From NCBI RefSeq assembly GCF_988242995.1, contig NZ_OZ547043.1: a stretch of DNA of 64,000 nt. One strand, 5' to 3'. Of the stretch, positions 28,801 through 30,936 are shown one piece after another; the stretch's first letter is position 1, and each line of letters opens with the position of its first letter. The position numbers are program-made.

Positions 28801-30936
28801 TATTCCAGCTCACAGCAATGAACGAATGTCGCTATAACTTTTGCCTCAACAGCATAAAGGAAAGCTGGCCAGAATTAAGTTTCCCTGGATCACATGCTGA
28901 TATTGGTGGCGGTTATGACCCACAGGAAGATGAGTACCTGTTTTTAAGTCGCCCGGCGATTGAAACGGTACTGGGAAATGTGCCGATGGAAGCGACAAGC
29001 GCTTACCAAAAAGCAGTACAGCAGGCAGAGTTATTGTGGCGCTATTCGACGCTGGCTCCGATTCTGCCTTCTGGTGTCCTAAAAATTGAATCCAATATTG
29101 ATGAAATAGCGTCGCCTGACCACTTAGGTAATGTGAGAAAACGGGTCGCTGCAGCGGTGACATTTCGCAGAACGATCACCAATGACTGGTCAAAGATTGC
29201 GTTAAGAGTAATGTATGAAGTCGCTAAAGAGGCAGGGGTAGTATTTGATGCCATTTCTGTTGCTGATAAGGAATTAAAAGTTCCCAGTCATTTAAAGGTA
29301 ATATGTGAAAAAGCAATTTCTCAGGGTAAAGCCGTTCTCTTGTGTACAGCGCCGATGCCTTTTTCTGATGATGAGCTTAAAACCATTGGGAAATATTTAC
29401 ACTGTTCTTCCAACTGGAATACCGTCGATTATCGATTAAAAAATAAGGTGTCTGCTGAAGTATCAGCGTTTAAGACGTTTAGTTTTGTTAATCGGCCGGA
29501 TGAAAATTGGACCAGAACTATATACGATATGCAAGGGAATAAACAAAATGGAATTTAATATAAAATTACTGTTTGTTATTACGTCTATGGTTCTTAACTT
29601 TAACGCAGCAGCGAAAGAAAAAATATTGTTGCTTGCACCCTATGATGAGTGGTATTTCAATTTTTTCTACCCTGATTCCCTACCAGCACAAGTTACCTAT
29701 GTGGAATTATTAGATACCGATGGCATCTATTATCAGTTCAGAACGCTGGCCAGTACCAATGCCAGTCCAGGAAGTGTTGGACAATGGAGCGAGAAAGTAT
29801 CAGGGATGTCGTCAGTTTTTAATAAAGCCAAAAACCCACCAATGTCTATCCATTTTTGCTGGGATTCAGTGATTGATAAAAAAGTGTATGAAACCTGGAT
29901 AACACTGGCGGGAGACGTCTGGAAATTGATGCTCACACCTTATTCACCACCAGGCGGTGGCAGTGAAAAGTATTATCTGCGGTATCTGTTAATCGGGCTG
30001 GCTCCGGAAGGAAAAGTACGGGTATGGCTTAATAAACGTGACAAACCCAATATTCGCCTGACGGATAAGCAGATTCTGATAGAAACGGTTTCAGGTGAAA
30101 AAATGGAAATGTGTAAAGGAATTTCCCGGCATGATTTTTCTCTTGGAGACGATGAATATGTTCTTGAGTTTATCAAAGATAAAAAATATCCCTATGGTAA
30201 CTGGTAAGTAACAATGAAAATAACAGCTAAAATAATTTATAGATTAACCATTGCGTTAATGATAGCCGGATCAGTCCAGACAGCAGCGAAAGAAAAAATA
30301 TCACTGCTTGCACCCTATGATGAATGGTATTTCCTTTTTTTCTACCCTAATGCGCTACCAGCACAAGTTACCTATGTAGAACTATTGGACACTGATGGTA
30401 TCTATTATCAGTTCAGAACGCTGGATGCTACCGCTCCGAGTTCCACTACTATTGGTCAGTGGAGAGATAATCTTCGGGTTGGGGTGTTATCATTCAATAA
30501 AGCCAAAAATCCCCCTATGTCTATCCATTTCTGCTGGGATTCAGTGATTGATAAAAAAGTGTATGAAACCTGGATAACGCTGGCGGGAGACGTCTGGAAA
30601 TTGATGCTCACACCTTATTCACCACCAGGCGGTGGCAGTGAAAAGTATTATCTGCGGTATCTGTTAATCGGTCTGGCTCCAGAAGGAAAAGTACGCGTAT
30701 GGCTGGAGAAACCTGACAAGCCCAATATTCGCCTGACGGATAAGCAGATTCTGATAGAAACGGTTTCAGGTGAAAAAATGGAAATGTGTAAAGGAATTTC
30801 CCGGCATGATTTTTCTCTTGGAGACGATGAATATGTACTTGAGTTTATCAAAGATAAAAAATATCCCTATGGCAACTGGTAGTTAACCAGTTGCACAATT
30901 TATTAAAGAGGAACGGAAAAGCATTTTTGTGGGTTA

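Follow-up and report, generated by a model that had tools for sequence, protein, structure and literature searches.

The ybbP-mnmH Islet and Its Three Genes

We analyzed a stretch of 64,000 nucleotides of an Escherichia coli chromosome (RefSeq assembly GCF_988242995.1, contig NZ_OZ547043.1; hereafter the window), in which a 3.5-kb islet carries a gene for a type VI secretion system (T6SS)-type lipase effector followed by two tandem genes, here called A and B, that are candidates for its immunity genes. The gene order is tesA-ybbA-ybbP, the islet, and then mnmH-allS-allA-allR-gcl, with mnmH on the opposite strand, converging on the array from position 30934. Guanine-plus-cytosine (GC) content is 39.6% in the islet versus 52.5% in its flanks. 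The borders with ybbP and mnmH are the same at loci L001-L010 (loci read in this work are given as L numbers), and approximately 89% of complete E. coli genomes are without the islet, approximately 10% carrying it. The islet contains three co-oriented genes, namely a 667-aa effector open reading frame (ORF), gene A, and gene B (Table 1).

A first-pass annotation had described a tandem pair of diverged genes, the first with an ATG overlapping the end of the effector gene. Both ORFs were recovered, and the ATG of gene A (29548-29550) does lie inside the effector ORF, the stop codon of which occupies 29556-29558; the overlap is 11 nt long (ATGGAATTTAA). A spacer of 6 nt separates the gene A stop from the gene B start. 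An almost identical two-gene locus is carried by GF60, in which the gene starts given by the Prokaryotic Genome Annotation Pipeline (PGAP) are the same as here.

Table 1. Features of the islet, with positions in the window, and cassette types of the immunity genes
Feature	Position	Strand	Basis and remarks
Islet, low GC	27387..30933	.	Inserted between ybbP and mnmH
Promoter-like site, TTAAAA-18-TATAAT	27450..27479	+	5' of the effector; consensus scan, 10/12 matches
Hcp-Tle1 fusion effector, Hcp-ET2 architecture, 667 aa	27555..29558	+	Pfam, TIGR, and PDB matches
Candidate immunity gene A, 219 aa, DUF2931/Tli1 family	29548..30207	+	Pfam, PGAP, identity to Tli1-EAEC
Position-1 signal peptide SP1, gene A (predicted)	29548-29613	+	Read from sequence
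Patch 1 of gene A, type a, ASTNASPGSVGQWSEKVSGMSSVF	29749..29820	+	682 places in 569 genomes
Patch 2 of gene A, type K, KGISRHDFSLGDDEYVLEF	30115..30171	+	57-nt cassette; 658 places in 534 genomes
Candidate immunity gene B, 222 aa, DUF2931/Tli1 family	30214..30882	+	80% identity to gene A; PGAP
Inner-position signal peptide SP2, gene B (predicted)	30214-30288	+	Read from sequence
Patch 1 of gene B, type b, DATAPSSTTIGQWRDNLRVGVLSF	30424..30495	+	534 places in 531 genomes; at least 99% identity in 527
Patch 2 of gene B, type K as in gene A	30790..30846	+	Cassette search
Terminator-like hairpin, GCAACTGGTAGTTAACCAGTTGC then T-rich tail	30872..30894	+	Spans the gene B stop codon; consensus scan, 9-bp stem
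Patch 1, type c			548 places in 531 genomes; cassette search, 5,426 genomes
Patch 2, type N, NGRSAYKHGYSYPESTKNF			1,102 places in 570 genomes; cassette search, 5,426 genomes

In the consensus scan, promoter-like sites were no commoner than in shuffled sequence, so the site upstream of the effector is weak evidence for a promoter.

The Hcp-Tle1 Effector

The effector comprises an Hcp domain (aa 1-149) and a Tle1-like lipase domain (aa 173-661; nt 28071-29537). It matches the Pfam families T6SS_HCP (PF05638, aa 6-138) and T6SS_Tle1-like_cat (PF09994), and scores 125 bits against TIGR03344, for which the cutoff is 58.9. The lipase domain aligns with Tle1 of enteroaggregative E. coli (EAEC; PDB 6SJL/6SKI) at E = 1e-127 and 45% identity, and its catalytic motifs are intact: GFSRG at aa 332, the Asp of FDTVAA, and the His of SHADIGGGY. 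Hcp is covalently fused to the DUF2235/Tle1 toxin domain, which is the arrangement that defines Hcp-ET2/ETI2.

Mosaic structure is seen in the effector too: aa 252-266 and 566-611 switch between unrelated versions with sharp borders, in E. coli as well as in Salmonella, as read at L006, L008, L016, and L017. L006 has the alternative version of aa 566-611, and L008 that of aa 252-266. Between the EAEC Tle1 that was crystallised and the Tle1 of strain STEC313, the region equivalent to aa 566-611 differs as well.

Uneven Divergence of Genes A and B

The two proteins are identical at 178 of 222 positions (80%; BLASTP E = 9e-136), far above chance. At the nucleotide level, this similarity is unevenly distributed: identity is approximately 50% in the signal-peptide region, 88.9% in the mature N-terminal core, 50% in a 72-nt segment that we call patch 1, and 95.9% (371 of 387, 16 differences) in the last 387 nt (29821-30207 versus 30496-30882). 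The near-identity of the C-terminal parts, as reported in the first-pass annotation, was thus borne out, except that the second span starts at 30496 and not at 30495. The numbers of synonymous substitutions per site (dS, Nei-Gojobori) vary likewise, being 0.86 in the signal peptide, 0.47 in the N-terminal core, 1.32 in patch 1, and 0.16 in the C-terminal part; the nonsynonymous values (dN) are 0.72 in patch 1 and 0.01 in the C-terminal part. Outside the patches, both genes are under purifying selection (dN/dS approximately 0.06-0.1). Because nucleotide identity and dS are both uneven, simple duplication followed by clock-like divergence cannot explain the pair.

Variation had been ascribed to one patch. 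Patch 1 is real, but a second patch exists near the C-terminus (patch 2), which is of the same type, K, in both genes of the window. Since both genes carry this type, their C-termini are nearly identical.

The N-termini of the two products, MEFNIKLLFVITSMVLNFNAAA followed by KEK in gene A and MKITAKIIYRLTIALMIAGSVQTAA followed by KEK in gene B, have the charged/hydrophobic/AXA layout of Sec signals cleaved by signal peptidase I, with putative cleavage between AAA and KEK and between TAA and KEK, respectively, so that the mature products would begin at K23 in A and K26 in B. Since a lipobox is absent, the mature products are probably soluble periplasmic proteins and not outer-membrane lipoproteins. 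The N-terminus is lipobox-like in 17 and not in 90 of 107 full-length homologues. Two cysteines are invariant in 71 homologues, which would fit a periplasmic protein. The exact gene A protein occurs on 72 public contigs and the exact gene B protein on 312. The 90%-identity protein cluster to which the gene A product belongs also contains the 667-aa effector, presumably a quirk arising from overlapping genes or fused gene calls.

A Cassette Mosaic across E. coli Genomes

A comparison of the module across E. coli genomes, proposed with the first-pass annotation, was carried out by searching 5,426 complete genomes with gene B. The query found 1,763 copies in 573 genomes, all chromosomal, at 1-4 per genome (median 3), and the arrays proved to be mosaics. 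Only one genome, GF60, has a copy at least 99% identical to the gene B version of the window. Strains labelled as sequence type 131 (ST131), such as EC958 and SE15, are among the sampled carriers.

Array structure was read at eleven E. coli loci at the ybbP/mnmH site. At every locus, the first gene has a signal peptide of its own, SP1, and overlaps the end of the toxin gene, and the inner genes share SP2. In RefSeq/PGAP, some inner genes are annotated from an internal Met (MIAGSV...), as at L002 (6535-7158), L007 (4546-5169), and L010 (3871-4494 and 5221-5844). A full-length ATG (MKI[IT]AKIIYRL...) lies 45 nt upstream in these genes, and the annotated start drops the signal peptide; these starts are probably misannotated.

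Nearly all of the variation falls into a few types. Patch 1 has three types in E. coli, a (ASTNASPG...), b (DATAPSST...), and c (DSTIPVST...), and patch 2 has two, K and N. Searches with the cassettes found approximately 1,764 places for the three patch-1 types and approximately 1,760 for the two patch-2 types, to be compared with the 1,763 gene copies, and each type is 95-100% conserved over hundreds of genomes. Between K and N, 68% of bases differ in an ungapped comparison of the 57 nt, and the flanking DNA is identical on both sides. We considered whether patch 2 might have arisen by a compensating frameshift; this was rejected, as the other frames of the N cassette are unrelated or contain stops and a gapped DNA alignment reveals no shifted identity.

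The combinations a-K, a-N, b-K, b-N, and c-N were found. The presence of a-K, a-N, b-K, and b-N together is a four-gamete signature, which implies recombination between the two patches. Type a occupies the first position in 11 of 11 loci. Type N is present in 570 of the 573 genomes, and the window, with its a-K, b-K array, is without N and without c; near-identical C-terminal halves are therefore a rare feature of this lineage and not a property of the family. Outside the patches, the scaffold is homogenised within arrays, and all copies in ST131-type arrays agree completely over the second half of the middle region. At the single-gene locus L003, the body of a first gene is joined to the synonymous tail of a last gene, as unequal crossing-over in the 675-bp tandem unit would yield.

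The mosaics vary between L001-L010, so that both the number and the content of the genes are strain-variable, as in arrayed immunity loci. Duplication followed by recombination, which had been suggested from the window pair, agrees with the sharp-edged cassettes, the four combinations, the uneven dS, and the copy number of 1-4. These sequence patterns support recombination, rather than gradual divergence, as the source of the differences between copies.

Another explanation, that an assembly duplication produced the near-identical C-terminal halves, had been named in the first-pass annotation as what would overturn its account; it has nothing in its favour except the high identity itself, and it can be dismissed, because the tandem structure is present in 573 independently finished genomes (1,763 copies), with an almost identical locus in GF60, and the window copies differ at 16 of 387 nt and have distinct signal peptides.

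Homologues in Salmonella and Enterobacter

Homologues at 55-68% identity were found in Salmonella and Enterobacter. Over 107 homologues, sequence entropy peaks at both patch regions (1.38 and 1.09 bits), versus 0.43-0.53 bits elsewhere in the mature protein. The Salmonella module also consists of an Hcp-Tle1 fusion and 1-4 DUF2931 genes, with a 4-nt overlap with the effector and a first gene that has its own signal peptide. It lies at a kdp/phr site (L012-L019), and a second Salmonella module lies beside selU/mnmH (L020-L021), the right-hand neighbour of the E. coli islet.

The cassette lineages extend across genera: patch-1 type a of E. coli has 58% identity to a Salmonella type versus 25-38% to types b and c of its own species, and types b and c have 54-58% identity to the other Salmonella type. 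Type K of patch 2 has 47-53% identity to versions in Salmonella, Enterobacter, and Tli1-EAEC, versus 21% to type N. At L011 (E. coli STEC313, 2625-4123, in the T6SS-1 cluster), two Tli1-EAEC genes share 93% identity, their differences lying almost entirely in the patch-2 region. Since the types are discrete, conserved, and shared across genera, the patches appear to be functional alternatives and not drifting loops. We considered whether patch types b and c are especially similar to Tli1-EAEC, which would suggest protection against VgrG-borne Tle1, and rejected this, as identity is 25-33%.

Family Identity and Predicted Structure

Gene A matches Pfam DUF2931 (PF11153) at E = 1.9e-27 over aa 30-198. 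Its mature domain is 45% and 49% identical to the two PGAP-named Tli1-EAEC proteins of L011, with a shared YPYGNW end. Two features of the Tli1 family, a DUF2931 domain and a gene directly 3' of a Tle1 (DUF2235, GxSxG) phospholipase effector, are found here. EAEC Tli1 is described as a DUF2931 lipoprotein that binds and inhibits Tle1, with which it forms a tight 1:1 complex. Tli1(tox-) of Vibrio cholerae, also a DUF2931 protein, binds and neutralises Tle1 (PMC7245790, PMC10395195). The proposal that A and B are immunity genes therefore holds as a family-level candidacy, to which the direct coupling 3' of the Hcp-Tle1 lipase gene and the predicted export signals contribute.

An AlphaFold2 model of the mature gene A product, built with 71 homologues in the alignment, is mainly beta (predicted local distance difference test [pLDDT] 87.3, predicted template modelling score [pTM] 0.87). 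In this model, patch 1 forms a strand and the long loop that follows (mature residues 46-69), and patch 2 forms the loop that comes behind invariant Cys167 together with the beginning of a short helix. By ten-residue block, pLDDT is 73-89 in the patches and mostly 91-96 in the core. No solved structure matched DUF2931 by sequence at E <= 10, and none matched the model by fold in Foldseek at E <= 0.001.

A Probable Tli1-Family Immunity Array of the Hcp-ET2/ETI2 Type

Taken together, we consider it probable that genes A and B form a short array of Tli1-family (DUF2931) immunity genes within a three-gene hcp-tle1/A/B operon of the Hcp-ET2/ETI2 type. By homology to the EAEC, Aeromonas, and Vibrio systems, the Hcp-Tle1 fusion would be built into the tube of a T6SS encoded elsewhere in the genome and fired into neighbouring cells, where the lipase domain would attack membrane phospholipids from the periplasm. 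Sec would export the DUF2931 proteins, signal peptidase I would cleave them, and in the periplasm they would bind the lipase as it arrives, so that sister cells are protected. Gene A, whose translation is coupled to that of the toxin, is the likeliest cognate immunity gene; gene B would be a tandem-duplication paralogue kept by purifying selection, adding either breadth against variant Tle1 toxins of competitors or dose. The sequence comparisons show that the genes evolve as mosaics: a conserved scaffold, beta-rich in the model, bears two surface patches, each drawing on a few deeply diverged and internally conserved cassettes, and homologous recombination and unequal crossing-over in the tandem unit shuffle cassettes freely among array positions and shift copy number between 1 and 4. 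Export, binding, neutralisation, and T6SS dependence are all inferred for this module.

Several observations weigh against this assignment. The ORF list and annotated neighbours reveal no T6SS core genes within the 64-kb window. Neither immunity protein matches an NCBIfam model or receives a Tli1 name, PGAP gives both only the generic name 'DUF2931 family protein' (as in GF60), and both fall outside the narrower Tli1-EAEC naming rule, with 45-49% identity and N-termini that do not have the lipobox cysteine of Tli1-EAEC. In E. coli SA186 (L009, NZ_CP022730.1, 4443-5101), the sole DUF2931 gene is frameshifted and the Hcp-Tle1 gene is intact, so that deployment of the toxin, or else the need for immunity, cannot be universal. 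In Aeromonas hydrophila, Tli1 and Tli2 are both DUF2931 proteins, and both genes are needed for protection (PMC7245790, PMC10395195); if two genes were needed jointly here as well, taking A as cognate and B as an extra would be wrong.

What the Cassettes May Recognise

The variable patch had been interpreted as a specificity region. In approximately 20 E. coli and Salmonella loci, we found no cassette-for-cassette covariation between the first-position immunity cassettes and the effector cassettes at aa 252-266 and 566-611. Since the first-position types do not track those of the effector, the term specificity region is unproven.

Three accounts of the array can nevertheless be compared. In the first, which we regard as tentative and less likely than not, patch 1, patch 2, or both form the toxin-binding surface, and each cassette type recognises a different Hcp-Tle1 or Tle1 variant. 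At a similarly guarded level, gene A would act against the self toxin, and gene B (with C and D in other strains) against toxins of non-kin. The discrete, deeply diverged types, conserved within type and related across genera, are consistent with such a repertoire, as are the constancy of type a at the first position and the sharp-edged variable cassettes of the effector itself. In most of the multi-gene loci examined, the array mixes patch-1 types and has both types of patch 2. Two V. cholerae proteins of the DUF2931 family, with 80% identity to each other, are not alike in neutralising a given Tle1 (PMC7245790, PMC10395195), and at L006 and L016 the switch at effector aa 566-611 coincides with point substitutions inside the patches of the first immunity gene. 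However, at the Salmonella single-gene loci L012 and L014, effectors that are 94% identical and have the same cassettes stand beside opposite patch-1 types. The first-position combinations a/FSR, c/FSR, c/NHS, and a/NHS are found whichever effector cassette is present, E. coli first genes have K or N beside the same effector, and the reverse is also seen, an effector cassette switching while the immunity type does not. This comparison covers a small sample of approximately 20 loci.

The repertoire account may be extended to a combinatorial system, in which a scaffold and two binding loops are drawn from a small and ancient pool of cassettes, kept in E. coli, Salmonella, and Enterobacter by balancing selection and reshuffled by recombination within arrays, and each strain puts together a repertoire of its own against the cassette-variable Tle1 toxins of competitors. 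We regard this extension as speculative and less likely than not. If it were true, the a-K/b-K array of the window, with neither c nor N, would predict a specific gap in cross-immunity.

According to a second account, the copies are equivalent and serve to raise the level of immunity protein, the patches being loops at the surface that tolerate change and take no part in recognition. In the model, the patches are mostly loop and have pLDDT below that of the core, first-position patch types change while the effector does not, and copy number varies freely, all of which would suit a dose effect. Neutral loops should, however, drift continuously; instead, three and two discrete types account for the 1,763 copies, with 95-100% conservation, sharp borders, and relatives in other genera. 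We consider the dose account unlikely.

The third account, in which A and B act jointly, whether as a heteromer or one after the other, and neither suffices alone, follows the A. hydrophila precedent and agrees with two genes that are intact, co-oriented, closely spaced, and under purifying selection. It is difficult to reconcile with a single DUF2931 gene beside an intact effector in E. coli L003 and Salmonella L012 and L014, or with 1-4 copies accompanying the same effector, and it appears quite improbable.

Relation to Known Systems

Hcp-Tle1 toxins with Tli1-type immunity are already known, as are tandem DUF2931 immunity genes in Aeromonas, Vibrio, and EAEC. According to reviews (PMC6730261, PMC6099711), Hcp-ET2/ETI2 is a T6SS-delivered Tle1 toxin/immunity pair of E. 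coli. The likeness to the module described here lies in the N-terminal Hcp with a DUF2235/Tle1 phospholipase, immunity gene(s) directly downstream, and an orphan islet outside a T6SS cluster; it was drawn by architecture, from review descriptions of the original system (Ma et al. 2017, Virulence 8:1189; strain PE321), and not by sequence. These reviews do not mention a multi-gene array, a cassette mosaic, or a copy number of 1-4.

Tle1-Tli1 of EAEC (Flaugnatti et al. 2016/2020) resembles the module in its lipase (45% identity over approximately 510 aa, catalytic motifs kept), in its DUF2931 immunity protein (45-49% identity, C-terminal YPYGNW end), and in tandem tli1 copies that differ almost solely at the patch-2 region. 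It differs in that Tle1-EAEC is a VgrG-bound cargo effector (Tle1-VgrG, PDB 6SJL/6SKI), whereas the lipase here is fused to Hcp, and in that Tli1-EAEC is a lipoprotein (lipobox LLTGC), whereas A and B have predicted signals of the signal peptidase I type without the cysteine. In Aeromonas and Vibrio, zero to three genes for DUF2931 proteins with signal peptides lie downstream of a DUF2235 Tle1 (PMC7245790, PMC10395195); the effectors there are VgrG/DUF4123-dependent cargo and not Hcp fusions, cassette structure is undescribed, and both DUF2931 genes are needed in Aeromonas, whereas single-gene loci occur for the present module. For the idea that an immunity protein may activate its lipase, a precedent exists in E. 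cloacae, which we set aside as an idea only, because that Tli is an unrelated ankyrin-repeat protein.

Tandem immunity paralogues beside or away from an effector are found in the orphan immunity arrays of V. cholerae and the acquired interbacterial defence clusters of Bacteroides. Such orphan or arrayed T6SS immunity genes are strain-variable in number and may broaden protection. In contrast to the whole-gene divergence of those arrays, variation in the present module is concentrated in two short swappable cassettes on a homogenised scaffold. In the literature that we searched, which was incomplete, no earlier account was found of a mosaic built from two cassettes, of how these reassort, of signal peptides tied to array position, or of a census of 1-4 copies in E. 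coli.

The population picture is worth keeping in its own right: approximately 10% carriage, 1-4 copies, and nearly all variation in two reassorting cassettes. If the cassettes set which Tle1 variant is neutralised, they may become a compact, sequence-readable predictor of who kills whom among gut Enterobacteriaceae, as well as a convenient system for mapping the Tle1-Tli1 interface, of which sequence and fold searches yielded no solved structure. Otherwise, some other reason is needed for why discrete types are so strongly conserved.

Other Features of the Window

Outside the islet, a 338-aa ORF at 17027-18043 (-) weakly resembles, in its C-terminal part, the anchor of the trimeric autotransporter adhesin EmaA (E = 1.8e-6), with a score well short of the family cutoff. 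The region 12-15943 (+) begins with a giant ORF, at least 4,197 aa long, that has a C-terminal target domain of type I secretion (TIGR03661) at its end, and 3' of it are an LssB-type ABC transporter of the type I secretion system (12609-14771) and an HlyD adaptor (14768-15943); together, these genes look like a large RTX-like adhesin/type I secretion operon.

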